Shown here: piece after piece, positions 48,416-61,015 of the stretch
Layout: each line of letters begins with the position of its first letter
Position numbering within the stretch: position 1 is the stretch's first letter
From: Escherichia phage ECOH1
Reading direction: 5' to 3' (one strand)
DNA: 64,000 nt
Sequence record: ON540300.1
Made by a program: the position numbers and the translations under genes
Notes under the pieces: model-generated
Told to the model about the DNA's origin: nothing
What the model saw: only the letters and a program-made list of their open reading frames with translations
Database searches by the model: none

Positions 48416-48422
48416 AATGAAA

Positions 48423-50985: not shown

Positions 50986-51321
50986 ATGGACTTGTGGCTT
51001 TATGTAGCAGTTTGTGGGATTGTATGTCTGATAATCTTATTTATTCTTGGAGTAATGCGATTTAGAGACATCATACAGTCAGATTTTTTGCCTGAGTTTG
51101 CCATGATAGTTGGGGTTATTACCCTTTGTGTCTTGGCAGTGTTCTATTCATACAAAACTGTGATATGGATGGAGGCAAACAATTGTGTAAAAACTCATCA
51201 GCATCGTGAGGTTACTCATTTTGTGAGTGTACTTAGTGGTAGCACCACTATACTTGTCCCACAAACTTCTGTAGAGTATCTTTACACATGTGATAATGGT
51301 AAAACTATATGGTGGAATTAA
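50986..51321 (+). CDS. membrane protein
   Basis: ATG 50986 with RBS ggag; multiple hydrophobic segments. Confidence 0.45.
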   Translation: MDLWLYVAVCGIVCLIILFILGVMRFRDIIQSDFLPEFAMIVGVITLCVLAVFYSYKTVIWMEANNCVKTHQHREVTHFVSVLSGSTTILVPQTSVEYLYTCDNGKTIWWN

Positions 51322-51524
51322 CAATGACAACACTCTTAAAAGTATTGATGCCCATACTACATATAGCAGTCTTCTTCTTTGGTATTAGTGTTATGGTATG
51401 GGGCTTTTCAGACCCACAATGGAGTTTTTCATATCATGGTCAGATGGACTTATGGTCATGCTTCAAACCATTTTTAGGGTTAGCTATAGCATTCAGTGCA
51501 TTACCAACTAAGGTGAAATTATGA
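51309..51524 (+). CDS. small membrane protein
   Basis: 71-aa hydrophobic ORF. Confidence 0.4.
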   Translation: MVELTMTTLLKVLMPILHIAVFFFGISVMVWGFSDPQWSFSYHGQMDLWSCFKPFLGLAIAFSALPTKVKL

Positions 51525-51951: not shown

Positions 51952-52437
51952 ATGAATTACATGGAGATTAGACCATTTGACACAGCTAATGGTGAAGGGG
52001 TTCGTGTAAGCCTCTTCGTAGCTGGCTGCAAACATCACTGTGAAGGCTGCTTTAACAGGGAGTCTTGGAAATTTAATGCTGGTAAAGAGTTTACTTATGC
52101 AAACCTCTACGGCATCATTAAGTTAATGGATGATAATGCTATCAGTGGACTGTCAATACTTGGTGGGGAGCCTCTGGATGACAGAAACATTCAAGAGGTC
52201 ACTAATATATGCAAGCATATTAAAACCGTTTATCCAGAGAAGTCTATCTGGCTCTGGACAGGTTTTCAGTTACACGAAAAAATTCACCTAGATGTGATGA
52301 AATACGTTGACGTGGTGATTGATGGTAAGTATGATTCATCTAAACCAACAGTTAAGCCGTATCGTGGTTCTGATAACCAAAACCTCTGGAGAAAAGAGTA
52401 TGGGTGGCAAGGTGACTGTCAGTGGAGAGCCGAGTAA
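51952..52437 (+). CDS. nrdG: anaerobic ribonucleotide reductase activating protein (radical SAM)
   Basis: CxxxCxxC motif CKHHCEGCF; size 161 aa; nrdD context. Confidence 0.7.
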   Translation: MNYMEIRPFDTANGEGVRVSLFVAGCKHHCEGCFNRESWKFNAGKEFTYANLYGIIKLMDDNAISGLSILGGEPLDDRNIQEVTNICKHIKTVYPEKSIWLWTGFQLHEKIHLDVMKYVDVVIDGKYDSSKPTVKPYRGSDNQNLWRKEYGWQGDCQWRAE

Positions 52438-52474
52438 GTCTCGTCGTAAAGTGGGTTACAGAAAAGGTGAGATA

Positions 52475-52777
52475 ATGGTTCTTTCTTTTAACAGTGCTTT
52501 ATTGGGTACTTATAAAATTAAGACCGAGCTACTTGATGAATGGAGAAAGTATACAAACTCCCTTTTCGGTAATGTTGGAATGGAAGCCTTAGCAGAGATT
52601 GAGAAGGCTGGAACATTTGAAGTTGTTGGTAAAGGTAACTACACAATGTTCTACAAAACAAATTTAAACGTTGGTGACAGTATTGTTGGTGTCACTGAAG
52701 AAGAACTTAAAACATTTTGTGAAAAGATTGAGAGAGATGCGAAATGGGACTCTGGAACAGTTTTAAATCAAAAGTAA
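52475..52777 (+). CDS. hypothetical protein
   Basis: ATG 52475 with RBS aaaggtgag (track start 52319 overlaps nrdG). Confidence 0.4.
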   Translation: MVLSFNSALLGTYKIKTELLDEWRKYTNSLFGNVGMEALAEIEKAGTFEVVGKGNYTMFYKTNLNVGDSIVGVTEEELKTFCEKIERDAKWDSGTVLNQK

Positions 52778-53001
52778 AAGCAGCACTAGCATCATTAGGC
52801 ATACTCACTGGCATTGATGTGACTCATCTTATGCAGAACTTTAAGATGGATGAGAAGCTGGCTAATGAGATTATGAAAAGTATCTATGTAGGCCGTGGCA
52901 AAGGTGGTAAGAAACAAGCCCACCGTCCGTCTGGTGCAGCAGCTATTAAACGAGCAGCTAAGAAAGCTCGTAACCGTAAACGTAATAAGAAGGCTAAATA
53001 A
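52744..53001 (+). CDS. hypothetical protein with basic C-terminus
   Basis: 85-aa ORF. Confidence 0.35.
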   Translation: MGLWNSFKSKVKAALASLGILTGIDVTHLMQNFKMDEKLANEIMKSIYVGRGKGGKKQAHRPSGAAAIKRAAKKARNRKRNKKAK

Positions 53002-53003
53002 TC

Positions 53004-53324
53004 ATGAGCAAAGTTTATAACACTCGTAAATTACAGATTTTCGTACTGTGCCAGTTTATGGCTAAAGAATATAACTTCTACTATTGTGGTACAGGTTTTA
53101 TTAGCGATGATGATGGCTCATACCTCCCATTTAAAGAAGCTGTGAAACTCTTTAATGAAGAGAAAAGCTCTAAGAAAGATATTGAAAAGGTTAAGCTAAC
53201 CTACAGCAAGAAAGATAAGAAGATTATCTGCCTAGATAACTTTGTGAAAGTTACTGGAGAAGCAAAAGAGTTTATGGATGAGAGTGAAATCTCATTCACA
53301 AGCATCTTGAAAGTAGCTCAGTAA
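53004..53324 (+). CDS. hypothetical protein
   Basis: 106-aa ORF. Confidence 0.4.
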   Translation: MSKVYNTRKLQIFVLCQFMAKEYNFYYCGTGFISDDDGSYLPFKEAVKLFNEEKSSKKDIEKVKLTYSKKDKKIICLDNFVKVTGEAKEFMDESEISFTSILKVAQ

Positions 53325-53337
53325 ACAGATACTATAA

Positions 53338-53361
53338 GGGGACTGTAAAGGTTCCCTTTTT
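53338..53361 (+). terminator. intrinsic terminator
   Basis: ggggac-tgtaaag-gttccc followed by T5. Confidence 0.55.
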
Positions 53362-53375
53362 ATTTTGGAGATAAT

Positions 53376-53891
53376 ATGTATCTGTCAAATCTGAAACGTT
53401 CTGTTGCAATGTCAGTGTTAAGACTCAGTTTTGAGGAACGTCAAGAGTTCATTGACTCCCACCAATACGACCCTTCCAACTCCAATCACATGATTCTCTG
53501 GAATCGTGAGAGTACTCGTGAAAGAGCATTATTTCGATATTATCCACACTACACCATAGACAACCTGTATGAATGTTTTGTTGTGAAGAACACCATTAAA
53601 GTACTCAATAAACTTTGCAGATACACAGGCAGTCAATCCTTCACATTAGGCCACCACAAACCTGTTACAAAAGGTGGTGAACATCACTGTGCAAACTGGT
53701 TTATTCAGACTAAAGCTGATAACCAGAAGCAAGGAGATAGCCTCCTAAGTATCCCTAAGATGACCTATGAAGAGCAAGAGAGATATATCAAAAATAATAT
53801 GCCAGATGTGCTTGACAACAACTATACAGATTTGGCAATATCTCTCCTGTTGAAGTTCGAGATAGTTTATAGGGCAACTTACAATGGCTAA
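53376..53891 (+). CDS. HNH endonuclease-like protein
   Basis: HNH-like segment GHHKPVTKGGEHHCANWFIQTKADNQKQGD. Confidence 0.5.
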   Translation: MYLSNLKRSVAMSVLRLSFEERQEFIDSHQYDPSNSNHMILWNRESTRERALFRYYPHYTIDNLYECFVVKNTIKVLNKLCRYTGSQSFTLGHHKPVTKGGEHHCANWFIQTKADNQKQGDSLLSIPKMTYEEQERYIKNNMPDVLDNNYTDLAISLLLKFEIVYRATYNG

Positions 53892-54162
53892 AGAAAAGTG
53901 GGAGATTTTACCATTAGTCAGTGAAGGCGGTAATGGTTGTGAAATGTACATGATACGTGGTCATGTTCCAGAGCCAATTGCACTTGAGATGGTAAATAAT
54001 TATACAGATGGTTCCTGCAAAGACTTAGGAGAACCAACTGTCAAGCAGCAATGGGTAAAGCCTGTGCCAGATAGTACAGGAAACTGTAGTGTACTTTATC
54101 ACGTTGTAGACCCTGTAAAATGCAAGTCTGCAATGGCAGTAACTAACGTAACTTTTGATTGA
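53884..54162 (+). CDS. hypothetical protein
   Basis: 92-aa ORF. Confidence 0.4.
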   Translation: MAKEKWEILPLVSEGGNGCEMYMIRGHVPEPIALEMVNNYTDGSCKDLGEPTVKQQWVKPVPDSTGNCSVLYHVVDPVKCKSAMAVTNVTFD

Positions 54163-55055
54163 GAGAGAAAATTATGAAAACATCTATACGTGTTACAGTT
54201 CATTCACCAACTAAAGGAACTCATGAAGAAGAGTTTAACATCATCCAATTTCCTTCTGGTGAGATTGGTGGACACTTTTCACCAGAGTTTGTTGATTTTA
54301 CTGCTTATGCAGCATCATCTATCAACAATGTGATTATGATTGTAAAAGGTTATGATAAGGACACATTGTTTGCTGTGGCACTTGCTAAAGAAGCAATTGA
54401 TGATTTAGTACCTCATAAGTTTGCTATGAAGACTGCTATCTTTTACTATTTGCCAAATGCACGTTACGACCGTCACATGTTTAAAGGTGATGCAGCAGCT
54501 TTGAAAGTGTTTGCACAACAGGTTAATGCAATGGGTTTTGATGCAGTCTGTGCAGTTGACCCTCACAGCTATGTACCAGATAACCTGTTTAACTGCTTCC
54601 AGAGTATTCCTCAAAAGGAAATTGCAGTCCACTATGCAAATGACCCACGCATTGATTTCTTGGTAGCCCCAGATGCAGGTGCAGCTAAGAAGACTGAAGA
54701 GACTGCTAAAGAGGTGGATAAACCATACATCACAATGTCTAAAGTACGTAACCTTAAGACTGGTGAAATTACTGGTATGCGAATCCTTGATGATGTTGAT
54801 TTGACCGATAAAACTGTCATGATTCTCGATGATATCTGTGATGGTGGTCGAACCTTCATAGAAGCAGCTAAACATCTTCGTGAAGCAGGTGCAAAACGTG
54901 TGGAACTCTATGTAACTCATGGCATTTTCTCTAAAGGTGTTGAAAACTTACTTGACAATGGTATTGACCATATCTACACTACAAACTCTTTAGGGGAAGC
55001 TAAAGACCGTGGCTTAACACATTATGCCCAAGTTACTGTAATTACCATTGATTGA
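54159..55055 (+). CDS. ribose-phosphate pyrophosphokinase (Prs) family protein; candidate ADPR-pyrophosphate synthetase of a NAD+ reconstitution pair
   Basis: Prs-like motifs DPHSYVP and PRPP-binding loop VMILDDICDGGRTF, GAKRV...THGIFS; similarity to E. coli Prs judged from recalled sequence. Confidence 0.75.
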   Translation: MREKIMKTSIRVTVHSPTKGTHEEEFNIIQFPSGEIGGHFSPEFVDFTAYAASSINNVIMIVKGYDKDTLFAVALAKEAIDDLVPHKFAMKTAIFYYLPNARYDRHMFKGDAAALKVFAQQVNAMGFDAVCAVDPHSYVPDNLFNCFQSIPQKEIAVHYANDPRIDFLVAPDAGAAKKTEETAKEVDKPYITMSKVRNLKTGEITGMRILDDVDLTDKTVMILDDICDGGRTFIEAAKHLREAGAKRVELYVTHGIFSKGVENLLDNGIDHIYTTNSLGEAKDRGLTHYAQVTVITID

Positions 55056-55102
55056 AACTTTATAGGGGGTTTCAAAGCCCCATTTTGAGAGAGATTAAAA
55101 AG

Positions 55103-56884
55103 ATGACTAAATCACTTTATGCAGTACCAGCAGGTTTAAACGCGGATGCTTACAAATCTGGCCATATTTATCAGTATCCTAGTGCAACAGAGTACCTAAT
55201 GTTCAACCTGACACCACGTAGTGACAAATGGTTTAACAGCCCTTTAGCAATTGACGGTGTAGTGGCTTTTGGTATTCAACGTTTTGTTAAAGATTACCTG
55301 ATAGACCACTGGAACGCCACCTTCTTTGAACGTGACAAAAAAGAAGCAATTGACGAAATCTTAGAAGTCATGAACGGTGTTCTGGGTAAAGATGCTATTG
55401 GTCGAGAACATTGGGAAGCACTCCATGACTTAGGTTATCTACCAGTTGAAGTATACGCTGTAGAAGAAGGCACAGTTGTTCCTATGCGTGTACCAATGAT
55501 TGTCTTCCAGAACACTGTCTCAGGTTTCCATTGGGTAGCGGGGTATCTGGAAGATGCTTTCTCTGCTGAGATTTGGAAGGCTTGTACCATTGCAACTATT
55601 GCATTGCACTACAAACGTATCTGTAAGAAGTGGTCTGACCTTACTTGTGACAACGACTTGCATTTGCCTTATCAGTGCCATGACTTTGCTATGCGTGGTA
55701 TGTCCGGCTTTACCGATGACGCATTTAACGCTGTAGGCCACTTAACCAGCTTTAAAGGAACTGATAGCTTCCCTGCTGTGTATACAGCTAAACGCATCTA
55801 TGGACAGTCCTACCCAATCTCTGATATTGGTAGCTCTGTACCAGCCACTGAACACTCTGTAATGTGTGCAAACATTGCTTGGGAAGGTGGTAGTGAGTTG
55901 ATTGAAGAAGAAAGACGCTTTAAAGGTGAGTTACAAACCTTCCGTCGTTTCTTAACAGAAACTTACCCAACTGGTATTGCAAGTGTTGTTTCAGACACTT
56001 ATAACTTCTGGAGAACTGTATCAGTCATATTACCAGAACTCCGTAAAGAGATTATGGAACGTAATGGCAAACTAGTAATTCGTCCTGATTCTGGAGACCC
56101 TGTACATATTGTCACAGGATACAAAGCAATCCATTTAGAGTGTGCTAAAAAGGCTTATTACGAACACCTAAGTAAGCTGGAAGCCAGCGACACAATGCTG
56201 AATGCTGTTCTGAACATGAAGCTTGAAAACATCAATTATGGTATTGCTGGATGGCTACTGTCAGAAGGTTACGAAATGGTTGTTGACAGAGAAGACTTTG
56301 AAGTTGCTGATACAGTGCTGTTGAAAAATGCTTATATGGTTGGTTCTGCAAACGTTGTAACACGTCCTGTAGCGGAGATTGATGGAGCTATCAAGACACT
56401 GTATAACATCTTTGGAGGAACTATCAACTCTAAAGGTTTTAAAGTACTGGATGAGCATATCGGGCTTATTTATGGTGACTCTATCACGTTGGAACGTGCA
56501 AACGAAATACTGAAGCGTTTGTATGAAATGGGTTTTGCAAGCTCTAACGTAGTATTTGGTGTAGGTTCTTACACTTACCAGTACATGACTCGTGACACTT
56601 TTGCATTTGCTGTCAAAGCAACTCTTGCAAGTATTGGTGGTAAAGAGATTATGCTTGCAAAAGACCCTAAAACAGATAGTGGTGTTAAGAAGTCTGCTTT
56701 TGGTGGTGTAGCACCTATGTGGGATGGTGAAAATCTTAAAGCTGTAGATGGCTATGGATTCCAGAGCTTTGCAGATGCACTTGAACACCCAGCTTGTGCT
56801 TTACGTCTAGTCTTTAGCGACTCTGAGCAGTTCGGTTACACAACTCTTGGTGATATTCGAAATAATATTGACAAGCAGCTTTAA
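55103..56884 (+). CDS. nicotinamide phosphoribosyltransferase (NAMPT/NadV) family protein
   Basis: Recalled NAMPT signature blocks: LNADAYKSGHIYQYP, LPVEVYAVEEGTVVP, HDFAMRGMSG, FKGTDSFPAVY, SVPATEHSVM, VVSDTYNFW, IRPDSGDPV; start at ATG 55103 with RBS gagagag. Confidence 0.8.
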   Translation: MTKSLYAVPAGLNADAYKSGHIYQYPSATEYLMFNLTPRSDKWFNSPLAIDGVVAFGIQRFVKDYLIDHWNATFFERDKKEAIDEILEVMNGVLGKDAIGREHWEALHDLGYLPVEVYAVEEGTVVPMRVPMIVFQNTVSGFHWVAGYLEDAFSAEIWKACTIATIALHYKRICKKWSDLTCDNDLHLPYQCHDFAMRGMSGFTDDAFNAVGHLTSFKGTDSFPAVYTAKRIYGQSYPISDIGSSVPATEHSVMCANIAWEGGSELIEEERRFKGELQTFRRFLTETYPTGIASVVSDTYNFWRTVSVILPELRKEIMERNGKLVIRPDSGDPVHIVTGYKAIHLECAKKAYYEHLSKLEASDTMLNAVLNMKLENINYGIAGWLLSEGYEMVVDREDFEVADTVLLKNAYMVGSANVVTRPVAEIDGAIKTLYNIFGGTINSKGFKVLDEHIGLIYGDSITLERANEILKRLYEMGFASSNVVFGVGSYTYQYMTRDTFAFAVKATLASIGGKEIMLAKDPKTDSGVKKSAFGGVAPMWDGENLKAVDGYGFQSFADALEHPACALRLVFSDSEQFGYTTLGDIRNNIDKQL

Positions 56885-56899
56885 AAGTATATGATAAGA

Positions 56900-56920
56900 G
56901 GCTCCTACGGGAGCCTTTTT
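56900..56920 (+). terminator. intrinsic terminator
   Basis: ggctcc-tacg-ggagcc followed by T5. Confidence 0.6.
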
Positions 56921-56937
56921 AATTTCTGGAGAAGATT

Positions 56938-57273
56938 ATGAAAATCAAAGAGATGAACATCAACATTGTCTTAGAAGAGCGTTGGGAGAACATCAAGAAG
57001 CCTGAAAATGGTCATAAGTTCCTCAATAAAATCTTAGTAGCAGCTAAAGAAGAACTGACTGGCAAGATTGCAGCAGCAATCACAATAAAGGTCTGTGTAA
57101 AAGGTCTTCCAGACAATCACCAATTTGCACTTGACGAGTTTAAAGAGAGCTTCTACAATCCAAACAAACAGATGCTTGAAAGTAACTTTGCAGTGTCTAC
57201 AAGTATCGTCCATGACAGAAGCTTTATCCTTTACAAGAATATGAGAGGTGAGTCATGCAAGCATATTGGATAG
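56938..57273 (+). CDS. hypothetical protein
   Basis: 111-aa ORF. Confidence 0.4.
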   Translation: MKIKEMNINIVLEERWENIKKPENGHKFLNKILVAAKEELTGKIAAAITIKVCVKGLPDNHQFALDEFKESFYNPNKQMLESNFAVSTSIVHDRSFILYKNMRGESCKHIG

Positions 57274-57431
57274 AAATTTTGCTATCACTTGGTAGTGTAG
57301 CAGTGTTTGTTTATCTTCTTTGTAAGTACTTTGCAGAGTACAAGAAGTGTGATTACTGCAACGGAGAAGGGTATACAAGAGCAGGTTGTTGCCCTATGTG
57401 TGGCGGTTCTGGTAAAATGTTTAATAAGTAA
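57255..57431 (+). CDS. small membrane protein with DnaJ-type zinc-finger repeats (58 aa), not in the ORF track
   Basis: Translation MQAYWIEILLSLGSVAVFVYLLCKYFAEYKKCDYCNGEGYTRAGCCPMCGGSGKMFNK: TM helix plus two CxxCxGxG motifs. Confidence 0.4.
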   Translation: MQAYWIEILLSLGSVAVFVYLLCKYFAEYKKCDYCNGEGYTRAGCCPMCGGSGKMFNK

Positions 57432-57459
57432 TTTAACAGTAAACTAAGAGGAAAGTATT

Positions 57460-59826
57460 ATGCGCATGGTAAATGACCACGCAGAAGTGATTAAGAGTTC
57501 AACTTCTTTAGAGACGTCTCAAGCACAGATTACAATGACACCTGAGATGTTCAGCCTTTTGAGTTCTGGTGTATATACCTTTAAAGAAAGGGCAGTGATT
57601 CGTGAACTGTCATGTAACGCAGTAGATGCTCAGAAAGAAGCTGGAAAAGAGAACATCCCGTTCCATGTGCATTTACCTACTCGTTTTGAGCCTTACTTTG
57701 AAGTTCGTGATTTTGGAACTGGATTGACTCATGATAAAGTTATGAGTTTGTACCTAAACTACGGGGCTTCTACGAAGAATGACTCTAATGACTACATTGG
57801 TGCAATGGGTATCGGCTCAAAATCCCCATTTGCAATTGCTCAGTCATTCACAGTATCCAGCTATGTTGACGGTGTTGTTAACAAGTACTCTGTTTACCTT
57901 GAGAATGGTATCCCTCAAGTAACTAAGCTAACCACCAACCCAACGAATGAACCTAATGGTTTAGCTGTACGTGTAGCAGTTGCTGACCATCGTATTTCAA
58001 AGTTCTTTGAAGAGGCTGGTAATGTATACTCATACTTTGCTGTAAAACCAGAAAGTAATATTGAGTATGACGATGTATTAGCAGATATGAACGTCATTGC
58101 CCGTGAAGAAGGTGTCTATGATGCCATGATTCATAAGCAAAGCTGGCGTTCTAGTGGTAACAGGACAGAGTTTAATGTGGTGATGGGTAACATTGCCTAC
58201 CCTGTTAATATGGAAGCATTACTTGGTGATGATTTCTTCAAAGTATTGCCAGAATTTTTCCGTAGGAGCGTAGACCTTGTAAACATCTACATGCCTATTG
58301 GTTCAGTTGCTATTGCAGCTTCTCGTGAAGCATTGCAGATGAATGACACGACAAAAAATGTTATCATTGAGGCTACTAAAAAGATAACTGAAGCAATTAC
58401 AAAGGATGTTATCAAGAAAGTTAATAGCCAACCTACACTCATGGATGCTGCACAGGCTTATGCTGAGTTACGTTTGAACTCACGAGAGATGTTTAATGCT
58501 GTGTGTCCAAAGCTAGAGTGGGGAGGCGTTAAGCTTGATTCTCTGGAAGAAGAATTACTAAACATTCGTCGTGGAATTATCTACGCAGAAGACGGCTCAG
58601 TTGTCTATGAACGCGATGGTAAAGGTAATATTAAGGTTGATAGGAACGGAAACAACATCCCTAAAGTAGATTATCTTTATAATCCAGTTGCTTATGTTAA
58701 GTTTAACTCTTTAGAGAGTAAGATTCGTGCAACAGCACTTTCCTACACTCAAGAGGCGAGTATGTTCAATATCTTTGGTGCAATGCGCAAAAGCCAAATT
58801 GAACAGTTTTTGTTTGTTATCAATGACCGTCGCAATAAAAATGGTACTGAGAAGACTGTAGGACGCAATCAGATTCTGCGTGGTGCATGTCGAGACTATG
58901 CCAGTGAGTCAAGTCTGTTTCACAGATACAATGGTATTGTCTTTGTATTCTCGACTGAAAAAGAGTTAGACGACCTAATCAATCTGCACAAACTTGATAA
59001 AAGCTTGTTAAAGATTGTGAAGATGTCTGATAAGGAACACCATTATCAGCGTAAAGAAGCTGTAAGAGGTGTTGTAAAACTTTGGAAAGCTGTTCCAGCA
59101 GAAGGTGTAGCTTCCTATAAAGAGGTTTCAGAGGACTTTGATACAATTGAAGAACCTCAGTTTTATATTAAGGCAGTAGGCGACACAGTTGATGGCGAAT
59201 GTTTTTGCTCATCTCCAGAAGATGTAGCTAAGTCAGTTGCCAATGTCATTGGAAAGACAGTATATGTTTTCCGAAAAGCAAATTGGAAAAAGATACCAGA
59301 AGACTGGATTGAAGTAGATGAGAAGCTCTTGAACGACAGCTTAACTGATGTTCATTGGATTAATCATAACAGATATATGACACGTATCTATATGAATGGT
59401 GTCCTCGACCTTACAAGCAGTTGGATTATTGCCAGAAACTTTACGTTCAATAACAGAAAGATTTCTCGTGGTTATTGTTATTCACGAGATACAAACAAAA
59501 CTATCTTCTTAGAAGGTAATGAAGATGCTGTTGAGGCAATGTTTGGTAAAATCCAATACGTTGCTGCACCGTTTGCATACACTTACACTATTAGTAGGTT
59601 GCAAACTTTGAAAGATTGCCTTGACAATGATACAAAGCTGTACAAGAAAATTAAGAAAGCTGGTGACCGTATGGTCATCAAGGTGACAAACTATCTTTCA
59701 AAAAGAAAACAAGAAAACTTCTTGCTTTCTCATTTAGATTGGAATAAAGTGTCACCTATTGAAGTGAGTAAGTTCTTAGGCTTTGATGTGAAGTGTGTTC
59801 CAGAAGGAACTACAATTTACGATTAA
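57460..59826 (+). CDS. rIIA: rIIA-like protein with N-terminal GHKL/histidine-kinase-like ATPase fold
   Basis: N-terminal motifs ELSCNAVDA and VRDFGTGL...GAMGIGSKS; 788 aa; followed by a second large ORF. Confidence 0.5.
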   Translation: MRMVNDHAEVIKSSTSLETSQAQITMTPEMFSLLSSGVYTFKERAVIRELSCNAVDAQKEAGKENIPFHVHLPTRFEPYFEVRDFGTGLTHDKVMSLYLNYGASTKNDSNDYIGAMGIGSKSPFAIAQSFTVSSYVDGVVNKYSVYLENGIPQVTKLTTNPTNEPNGLAVRVAVADHRISKFFEEAGNVYSYFAVKPESNIEYDDVLADMNVIAREEGVYDAMIHKQSWRSSGNRTEFNVVMGNIAYPVNMEALLGDDFFKVLPEFFRRSVDLVNIYMPIGSVAIAASREALQMNDTTKNVIIEATKKITEAITKDVIKKVNSQPTLMDAAQAYAELRLNSREMFNAVCPKLEWGGVKLDSLEEELLNIRRGIIYAEDGSVVYERDGKGNIKVDRNGNNIPKVDYLYNPVAYVKFNSLESKIRATALSYTQEASMFNIFGAMRKSQIEQFLFVINDRRNKNGTEKTVGRNQILRGACRDYASESSLFHRYNGIVFVFSTEKELDDLINLHKLDKSLLKIVKMSDKEHHYQRKEAVRGVVKLWKAVPAEGVASYKEVSEDFDTIEEPQFYIKAVGDTVDGECFCSSPEDVAKSVANVIGKTVYVFRKANWKKIPEDWIEVDEKLLNDSLTDVHWINHNRYMTRIYMNGVLDLTSSWIIARNFTFNNRKISRGYCYSRDTNKTIFLEGNEDAVEAMFGKIQYVAAPFAYTYTISRLQTLKDCLDNDTKLYKKIKKAGDRMVIKVTNYLSKRKQENFLLSHLDWNKVSPIEVSKFLGFDVKCVPEGTTIYD

Positions 59827-59905: not shown

Positions 59906-61015
59906 ATGACTACTAAAACTAAAGCACAGATTGACGCAGAAATTTACAAACTGGTTAAAGAAGGCAAGCTGACTAAAACAGCTATTGCACAGAAGTTCAA
60001 TACTTCAACCCGTTCAGTTGGTCGTGCTGTAGAGCGTCATGAAGCAACCTTAAAGGGTAAGAAAAAGACAGCTTCGACACCAGCTACGAAGACTTTGAAG
60101 CAAGTTGCTAAGACCTTTAAGAAGAAAGCTGGCAAACCAGTTGAAAAGGTCGTTAAAGACACTGTACAGAAAGTTCCAGTAAATAAACTGCACGAAGCTA
60201 TGCAGAAAGATGACAAGATTGAGTACATGATTACTGGCGACTCTGTAATTATGACTTACGGTTCAGAATCTGAAATTGTTGAGTCTACTCATCCGAACTA
60301 TCAAGAGATTGTAGTCCATGTTGTGAAAGGTGAGTTCAAGAAAGCTTTCGAACTGATGAACATTCGTAAATCTATCGAAAACTTCACTCAGGGTGCTATC
60401 ACAATCAAAGGTGACAAGCTATTCTACGGTGCTGTTGAAATGCGTTCTACTCTGGTTGACCGTATCCTTCACATGATGAAGACTGGTGATAAAGGTTTTG
60501 AACGACTTGTAATGTTCTTCGAAAAACTGATGGAAAACCCATCTAAAGACTCTGTAGAACAACTTTGGGGATTCGTATCTCACCTTGATGTTGAAATTGA
60601 TGAAGAAGGCTACATCATTGGTTGGAAGAAAGTCTCTACTCGTGAAGGCAAGCTGGTTGACTCTCACACCTACAAAGTACCTAATGATTTAGGTAACATT
60701 GTAGAAATGCCACGTTGGATGGTTGATAACAACCGTAACGTAACTTGCTCTCAGGGTCTTCATGTTGGTGCTTGGGATTATGTTCGTTGCTTCTCAGGTG
60801 ATACAATCCTGAAGGTTCGTGTCCATCCACGAGATGTTGTATCTGTTCCGACTGATTACAACGATATGAAGATGCGTTCATCCCGTTATGAAGTTGCAGC
60901 AATCGTTGATAATCAACGTAAAGTGTTGAAAGCATGGGACGGTAAGACTGAAGCTTTGCATGTCATCGTCGGTACTGCTGGTGAACTCATCTCCCAACGT
61001 AAACGTGAAATCTAA
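59906..61015 (+). CDS. rIIB-like protein (putative)
   Basis: 369-aa ORF immediately downstream of rIIA-like gene; assignment by context only. Confidence 0.3.
   Translation: MTTKTKAQIDAEIYKLVKEGKLTKTAIAQKFNTSTRSVGRAVERHEATLKGKKKTASTPATKTLKQVAKTFKKKAGKPVEKVVKDTVQKVPVNKLHEAMQKDDKIEYMITGDSVIMTYGSESEIVESTHPNYQEIVVHVVKGEFKKAFELMNIRKSIENFTQGAITIKGDKLFYGAVEMRSTLVDRILHMMKTGDKGFERLVMFFEKLMENPSKDSVEQLWGFVSHLDVEIDEEGYIIGWKKVSTREGKLVDSHTYKVPNDLGNIVEMPRWMVDNNRNVTCSQGLHVGAWDYVRCFSGDTILKVRVHPRDVVSVPTDYNDMKMRSSRYEVAAIVDNQRKVLKAWDGKTEALHVIVGTAGELISQRKREI

Follow-up and report, generated by a model that had tools for sequence, protein, structure and literature searches.

The window analysed here, a 64,000-nucleotide (nt) stretch of Escherichia phage ECOH1 (ON540300.1), carries on its + strand two adjacent genes for relatives of Prs and NAMPT. 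The first, adps (54174..55055), encodes a Prs-like protein of 293 amino acids (aa), the candidate ADP-ribose pyrophosphate synthetase (Adps), and the second, namat (55103..56884), a NAMPT-like protein of 593 aa, the candidate nicotinamide ADP-ribose transferase (Namat). Together they would supply the first and second enzymes of NAD+ (nicotinamide adenine dinucleotide) reconstitution pathway 1 (NARP1). The adps stop codon, with its last base at 55055, is followed by a spacer of 47 nt without an intervening gene and then by the namat ATG at 55103. The same adjacency recurs in 23 related loci, these being the ones where a downstream Namat open reading frame (ORF) turned up in the scan.

In the ORF list the pair starts at TTG codons, at 54159 and 55052. 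The ATG codons at 54174 and 55103 are likely to be the true starts; a GAGAGAGA-type ribosome-binding site lies upstream of each, and the resulting products of 293 and 593 aa have exactly the lengths of the annotated genes of phage Bas63. The earlier note on this DNA described a Prs-like gene followed directly by a NAMPT-like gene and quoted several peptide blocks, and both descriptions hold, with two + strand ORFs that match the family profiles and with every block at its expected place: MILDDICDGGRTF at residue 216 of Adps, and LNADAYKSGHIYQYP, HDFAMRGMSG, FKGTDSF and IRPDSGDPV at residues 12, 193, 217 and 326 of Namat. Adps matches PF00156 (Pribosyltran, 2.7e-12) and PF14572 (Pribosyl_synth, 2e-9) in Pfam, as well as PHROG 619 (4e-99) and TIGR01251 (4e-36). 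For Namat, the Pfam matches are to NAPRTase and NAMPT_N, with PF04095 at 3e-34, alongside PHROG 448 (4e-201) and NF006629 (8e-140). These family assignments are far beyond chance for both proteins. The PADLOC scan was uninformative, its matches (ShosT and PsyrT) being generic ones to the phosphoribosyltransferase domain. Two antisense ORFs within the pair (54405-54920 and 56261-56788, - strand) are regarded as incidental.

A megablast search with the pair and the surrounding 24 kb retrieved hundreds of FelixO1-like phages of Escherichia, Salmonella, Shigella and Citrobacter, with 94-96% DNA identity across nearly the full length, and by this sequence comparison the window is part of a Felixounavirus genome. 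Bas63 (JohannRWettstein, GenBank MZ501086) is likewise a Felixounavirus. Its gp79 (bas63_0079, Adps) is 82% identical to the window Adps over all 293 aa, and its gp80 (bas63_0080, Namat) 97% identical to the window Namat over the full length, both without gaps. The flanking genes correspond as well: gp77, gp78 and gp82 of Bas63 are 95, 96 and 93% identical in aa sequence to their window orthologues, with equal gene order and lengths. The terminator after namat is base-for-base the same in the two phages and the hairpin between the two genes is homologous. Bas63 differs in having an additional gene of 114 aa, bas63_0081, between the Namat terminator and gp82, which the window lacks. In the window the Namat terminator is followed directly by the gp82 orthologue at 56938-57273 (comparison of 56926-56937 with L001:25455-25857).

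NARP1 was discovered in the gp79-gp80 operon of Bas63 (Osterman et al., bioRxiv 10.1101/2024.02.11.579819). When genes 79-80 were deleted, Bas63 no longer grew on SIR2-HerA cells and the recovery of NAD+ was lost, and a new metabolite, ADP-ribose pyrophosphate (ADPR-PP; m/z 720.010), was confined to defended cells that the wild-type Bas63 had infected (10.1101/2024.02.11.579819). In an independent knockout screen, single deletions of g79 or g80 reduced plating on SIR2-HerA cells by a factor of 10^4 to 10^6, and complementation restored it (10.1101/2024.10.10.617714). In the wider Adps clade, 97% of genes have a Namat nearby (10.1101/2024.02.11.579819). Published work has demonstrated the chemistry and anti-defence role of NARP1, which counters SIR2-HerA and further NAD+-depleting defences, with Bas63 in vivo and with the SPbetaL1, ICP1 and DyoEdafos enzymes in vitro, and FADO is a further case.

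Features of the Namat sequence point the same way. Crystal structures of SPbetaL1 Namat define a selectivity clamp that consists of an SCH motif and an SCL loop (PMC12774641). The SCH motif has the form GSxΦxΦxΦTRD, with positions 3 and 7 occupied by aromatics that stack on the adenine of ADPR-PP; the SCL contributes a further stacking residue, its third position being Arg, Lys or Tyr, and in the Lys and Tyr cases the stacking falls to the residue that follows, with Bas63 named as an example (PMC12774641). The published numbering was checked on the SPbetaL1 sequence and then transferred to the window protein by alignment. Residues 488-498 of the window Namat read GSYTYQYMTRD (G488, Y490, Y494, D498), in agreement with the SCH motif, and its SCL, P38-R-S-D-K42-W43, is the same as in Bas63 and aligns with P36-R-T-S-R40-V of SPbetaL1. 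The SPbetaL1 residues whose counterparts were sought were D13, Y15, F189, R192, D215, A242, R306, D308, G360-D361 and G390-S391, together with the catalytic His. All of the catalytic and contact residues are present (D15, Y17, F195, R198, D221, A248, H251, R327, D329, G458-D459, G488-S489 and T496-R497-D498). As specificity controls, the genuine NadV from Haemophilus ducreyi (9ke8) shows GAQTYQRNTRD at the SCH position, where Xanthomonas Nampt shows GGALLQKVDRD, and both lack the two clamp aromatics.

By sequence, the best solved relative of the window Namat is SPbetaL1 Namat (9w5w/9w5x, 428 bits), and an AlphaFold2 model of the window protein (confidence, pLDDT, of 93) matches 9w5x best with a TM-score of 0.95; the Namat crystals come first, followed by H. 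ducreyi NadV (HdNadV) and human NAMPT. The protein also contains an insertion subdomain of ~85 aa (residues ~340-427, encoded at 56120..56383, + strand) that is absent from SPbetaL1 Namat and NAMPT. In the model the insertion is predicted to be confidently folded and has no detectable structural relative, and other Namat lineages carry unrelated inserts at the same site. Chromosomal homologues of 496 aa in Klebsiella, Cronobacter, Phytobacter and Erwinia (P0072, P0073, P0086 and others) are 45-47% identical to the window Namat and carry a Namat-type GS[YF]TYQYNTRD sequence, which fits the bacterial NARP1 homologues that have been reported.

The Adps sequence can be read against the ICP1 Adps structures, in which the catalytic residue is Lys185, the acceptor groove is formed by R87, H121, D161, D212 and D213, the pyrophosphate-binding (PP) loop is remodelled, and loss of the C-terminal alpha11-alpha12 module is called a family signature (PMC13586617). 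In the window protein the catalytic lysine is K190, within S-K-V-R-N-L-K-T-G-E-I, and it aligns with K162 of SPbetaL1 and K185 of ICP1; R97, H131, D167 and D219-D220-I-C-D-G are conserved. The protein ends ...AQVTVITID, right after its last strand, where E. coli Prs has about 20 more residues, and the alpha11-alpha12 module of Prs is absent. The contacts to ADP-ribose (ADPR) and ATP in ICP1 Adps are F18, R87, F92, H121, D161, D212, D213 and the PP loop C215-S220 (PMC13586617). When these are mapped onto the window protein, F26, R97, H131, D167, D219, D220 and C222-D223-G224 are conserved, most of which are shared with true Prs. The global pairwise alignment of the ICP1 and window proteins misplaced the N-terminal F-x-x-G-E, and F18 was assigned to F26 by motif inspection.

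Profile scores separate the two groups. PHROG 619 scores the window Adps at 332 bits, Bas63 Adps at 333, SPbetaL1 Adps at 248 and E. coli Prs at 193, whereas E. coli Prs scores highest with TIGR01251 (124, 138 and 106 bits for the three phage proteins in the same order, against 423 for E. coli Prs) and with PRK01259 (94, 101 and 74, against 533). Clade membership was judged from such reciprocal hidden Markov model (HMM) scores, and on these scores the window protein resembles the two validated Adps, is unlike cellular Prs, and is placed in the phage Adps clade. The PDB sequence copy that was searched, which lacks the ICP1 structures of PMC13586617, contained no solved Adps, and the best match there is Sulfolobus Prs (4twb, 5e-21).

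Taken together, orthology, synteny and the conserved catalytic and specificity residues found here argue that the pair is the core two-gene NARP1 operon of a Felixounavirus, a reading to which we give a probability of about 0.93. By analogy with the homologues, the window's own proteins would perform the NARP1 chemistry and act against host defence as follows. A defence system (SIR2-HerA, DSR1/2, type I Thoeris or one of a comparable kind) would split NAD+ into ADPR and nicotinamide. Adps, as a hexameric Prs-like enzyme, would then transfer ATP's beta,gamma-pyrophosphate to the 1'' hydroxyl on ADPR's terminal ribose, giving ADPR-PP. Namat, as a NAMPT-like dimer, would let nicotinamide displace the pyrophosphate of ADPR-PP and so form NAD+ directly, with an adenine clamp made of K42/W43, Y490 and Y494 expected to make the enzyme choose ADPR-PP over phosphoribosyl pyrophosphate (PRPP). 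With NAD+ restored, phage replication could be completed.

The earlier note had proposed a NARP1-like Adps/Namat anti-defence pair, a proposal borne out by the finding that this is the same locus as Bas63 79-80 (82% and 97% identity). It had also pointed to alignment against characterised Adps and Namat versus Prs and NadV as one way to check the proposal, and in that comparison the HMM scores and the clamp motif side with Adps and Namat. Its further statement, that the use of ADPR or ribose-5-phosphate by the Prs-like enzyme cannot be told from sequence, is correct in the strict sense but too cautious, because the clamp signature of Namat and the family traits of Adps are present and because infected cells contained ADPR-PP in the case of the Bas63 orthologue.

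Several points weigh against this assignment. The adenine contact F92 of ICP1 Adps aligns with M102 in the window protein (with F103 adjoining), and A218-A219-S220 of the ICP1 PP loop correspond to G-R-T. Most of the Adps active-site residues also occur in true Prs, so that sequence alone separates the two families weakly. The N-terminal domain of the window Adps is just 69% identical to that of the tested Bas63 protein. The biochemistry is that of homologues of the ON540300.1 pair, and the in-vitro enzymology was done on the distant homologues of SPbetaL1 and ICP1, which are ~30% identical for Adps. Finally, Namat homologues still turn some PRPP into nicotinamide mononucleotide (NMN) in vitro, roughly half as fast as human Nampt (PMC12774641), and a minor NMN-forming role is thus possible.

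That residual activity also lends some weight to canonical salvage, in which an ordinary PRPP synthetase and an ordinary NadV/Nampt enzyme would make NMN for conversion to NAD+ by the host, boosting metabolism in general instead of recycling ADPR. The annotation of the pair in most database records is of this kind, the Pfam and NCBIfam names agree with it, and the pair lies just downstream of the nrdAB/nrdDG nucleotide-metabolism cluster. This explanation is nevertheless very unlikely. The operon was tested in a host without pncC and nadR, and the SPbetaL1 enzymes were tested with ribose-5-phosphate against ADPR and with PRPP against ADPR-PP; this led to reassignment of the first enzyme as an ADPR-PP synthetase and of the second as a transferase making NAD+ out of ADPR-PP (10.1101/2024.02.11.579819). 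In the window itself, the Namat clamp aromatics that are absent from true NadV are present, and all Prs equivalog models give the Adps 41-106 bits against cut-offs of 296-536.

A NARP2-type pathway, in which the NAMPT-like enzyme would make NMN from PRPP supplied by the Prs-like enzyme and a phage Nmnat would adenylate it to NAD+, is more improbable still. It too uses a NAMPT-family enzyme, and it accounts for ~20% of the phage Namat/Nampt homologues, but in the published tree the Nampts of NARP2 fall into a clade of their own, from phages with an Nmnat and without Adps (10.1101/2024.02.11.579819). In the window the NAMPT-like gene adjoins an Adps and carries the Namat clamp motif, and an Nmnat is neither annotated within the 50 kb of Bas63 that were examined (genes 45-129) nor found among the scanned neighbours. 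NARP3 uses PnuC and NadR (PMC13464706), and neither it nor NARP2, with its Nampt and Nmnat, fits the locus. Close to negligible is an extended NARP1 in which the pair would work with an Adpp Macro-domain phosphatase (NARP1-AP, against aRES) or a RyDEP RyR-domain glycosidase (against the cyclic ADP-ribose (cADPR) signals of Thoeris): ~15% of NARP1 operons have a Macro-domain gene (10.64898/2026.01.28.702374), RyDEP is found within the NARP1 locus of a mycobacteriophage (10.64898/2026.05.28.727677), and gp77 and gp78 seem to share a transcript with the pair, but the six flanking proteins give no Macro or RyR (PF02026) Pfam match, gp77 has a weak HNH-like PHROG match, gp78 matches a PHROG of unknown function, and the 47-nt adps-namat gap is geneless. 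With no Macro or RyR gene flanking or between the pair, the locus corresponds to the core two-gene NARP1 form.

The transcriptional context of this core operon was also considered. Between the two genes, a palindrome (GGGGGTTTCAAAGCCCC, 55065..55081, + strand) is followed by AUUUUGAGAGAG, the namat ribosome-binding site. In 23 related Felixounavirus-like loci the GGGGC/GCCCC stem of this hairpin is retained and its loop is variable, and the Bas63 stem is a 6-bp version. As an isolated RNA the element has a minimum free energy of -10.7 kcal/mol (z = -1.05), with 34/200 shuffles folding equally well or better. Since the stem is kept while the loop varies, the hairpin is probably a real RNA element. 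A role as a terminator was rejected, the palindrome failing the terminator scan and its fold energy being no better than that of shuffles. The earlier note was thus right about the presence of a palindrome with what proves to be a conserved stem; the start shifts from 55066 to 55065, the fold is weak, and the element is not scored as a terminator. The terminator that the same note placed after the pair is real and strong. It lies at 56896..56925 on the + strand and closes the unit with a 10-bp stem (56896-56919), a UACG loop and a T-run (z = -3.09, 0/200 shuffles folding as well), and the same structure is found in Bas63. A scan of 53000-58000 against Rfam gave as its sole hit a sub-threshold, chance match of the histone stem-loop on this terminator.

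A sigma-70-like promoter match, TTGACA-16-TATGAT (56868-56895, 11/12 positions), abuts the terminator, and upstream of the block promoter-like hexamers at 53307-53335 (9/12 positions) likewise abut a terminator-like hairpin at 53336-53358. The two promoter and hairpin pairs, at 53307-53358 and 56868-56925, bracket gp77, gp78, adps and namat, and just 11 nt separate the gp78 stop from the adps ATG. From this short gap and the bracketing elements, we infer that the four genes are likely to form a single transcription unit. At both ends of the block the promoter match stops exactly where the terminator hairpin starts, and comparable though weaker combinations are found at 48422, 36783 and 62825. 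Promoter and stem-loop together may thus be a recurrent cassette at the borders of gene modules.

The orthologues of gp77 and gp78 occupy 53376..54162 on the + strand and lie between the upstream hairpin and adps. That of gp77 (53376-53891, 171 aa) has no Pfam domain beyond its weak HNH-like PHROG match, and the PHROG match of the gp78 orthologue is its sole match. Bas63 gp77 has been described as GIY-YIG-like and is reported to counter retron Ec67 (PhageMaP preprint). Its orthologue, two genes ahead of adps, probably shares a transcription unit with it, and by this position and probable co-transcription the block looks like an anti-defence cassette. Further downstream, 57460-59826 and 59906-61015 are the orthologues of rIIA and rIIB, as judged by position and annotation. 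Bas63 g84 and g85 are reported to counter the QatABCD defence system (PhageMaP preprint), and the proximity of the rIIA/rIIB-region orthologues to NARP1 suggests that multiple anti-defence functions are clustered in ~8 kb.

The window differs from Bas63 in a mosaic block at 54074..54650 (+ strand), through which its Adps has another allele of the N-terminal domain. Inside the block, identity to Bas63 and to the relatives L022 and L023 at the DNA level reaches its lowest values of 64-69%, with 77-83% in two 150-nt bins at its edges and about 90-100% in the flanking DNA on both sides. Because identity falls only inside ~54074-54650, the difference is best described as a discrete recombination block. 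At the protein level, the first ~150 aa of Adps are 69% identical to Bas63 and the remainder 95%. Both alleles circulate among Felixounaviruses and share the same key active-site residues, and that of the window is the commoner, with 153 phage records matching it at >=90% identity. Upstream of the operon and in the nrdG region, two more mosaic blocks, at 51074-51374 and 52424-52874, show ~53-63% DNA identity to Bas63 and other relatives and represent the usual modular variation in the genus.

It is conceivable, although we consider it unlikely, that Felixounavirus NARP1 acts beyond the published two-step chemistry. The thought arises because the folded ~85-aa subdomain of Namat has no structural relative and because Adps N-terminal alleles that are ~69% identical, in a region of oligomerisation and adenine binding, have been exchanged by recombination in an operon that is otherwise 95-99% identical. 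Such an extra function could be docking, regulation, the handling of labile ADPR-PP, or evasion of a host factor able to sense or inhibit NARP1.

In this pair a published system has been identified once more, in the very genus that first yielded it; it is already known, and nothing at the locus changes the current understanding of NARP1. The pathway is nevertheless a major phage counter-defence that is present in at least 4% of sequenced phages, and spotting it helps to predict the success of a phage against NAD+-depleting immunity of the SIR2, TIR and DSR types, which is relevant to the choice of therapeutic Felixounaviruses. Defence of the aRES type produces ADPR-1''-phosphate and is countered by the Adpp phosphatase (10.64898/2026.01.28.702374), and it follows from that work that a phage with the core pathway and without Adpp should stay sensitive to aRES. 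The database labels ribose-phosphate pyrophosphokinase and nicotinamide phosphoribosyltransferase should become Adps and Namat.

Beyond Bas63, one of the closest known systems is the NARP1 of the Bacillus phage SPbetaL1 (Adps WIT26982, Namat WIT26983; 9W5W, 9W5X), which has the same two-gene order. The two systems are 30% identical in Adps and 46% in Namat, and they share the catalytic lysine (K162 in SPbetaL1, K190 in the window), the Namat ligand contacts and the SCH motif. SPbetaL1 Namat, with 491 aa, lacks both the ~85-aa insertion of the window protein and its ~15-aa insertion after HSVMCAN. The stacking residue of the SCL is Arg40 in SPbetaL1, where the window has K42-W43, and the PP loop of SPbetaL1 Adps reads DDLSSFGGT, where the window has DDICDGGRT. 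The Adps of the Vibrio phage ICP1 (gp228) is 31% identical to that of the window, which has a longer N-terminal region; the two share the DDICDG loop, the residues K185/K190, R87/R97, H121/H131 and D161/D167, and the truncated C-terminus. In contrast, E. coli Prs (b1207), at 26-27% identity, shares the fold and core catalytic residues of the window Adps and keeps the alpha11-alpha12 module. In the same way, the window Namat shares its fold and core catalysis with the NadV and Nampt enzymes (H. ducreyi 9KE8, Xanthomonas 7YQO and human NAMPT), and is set apart from NadV and Nampt by the adenine-clamp aromatics that it alone carries in this comparison.

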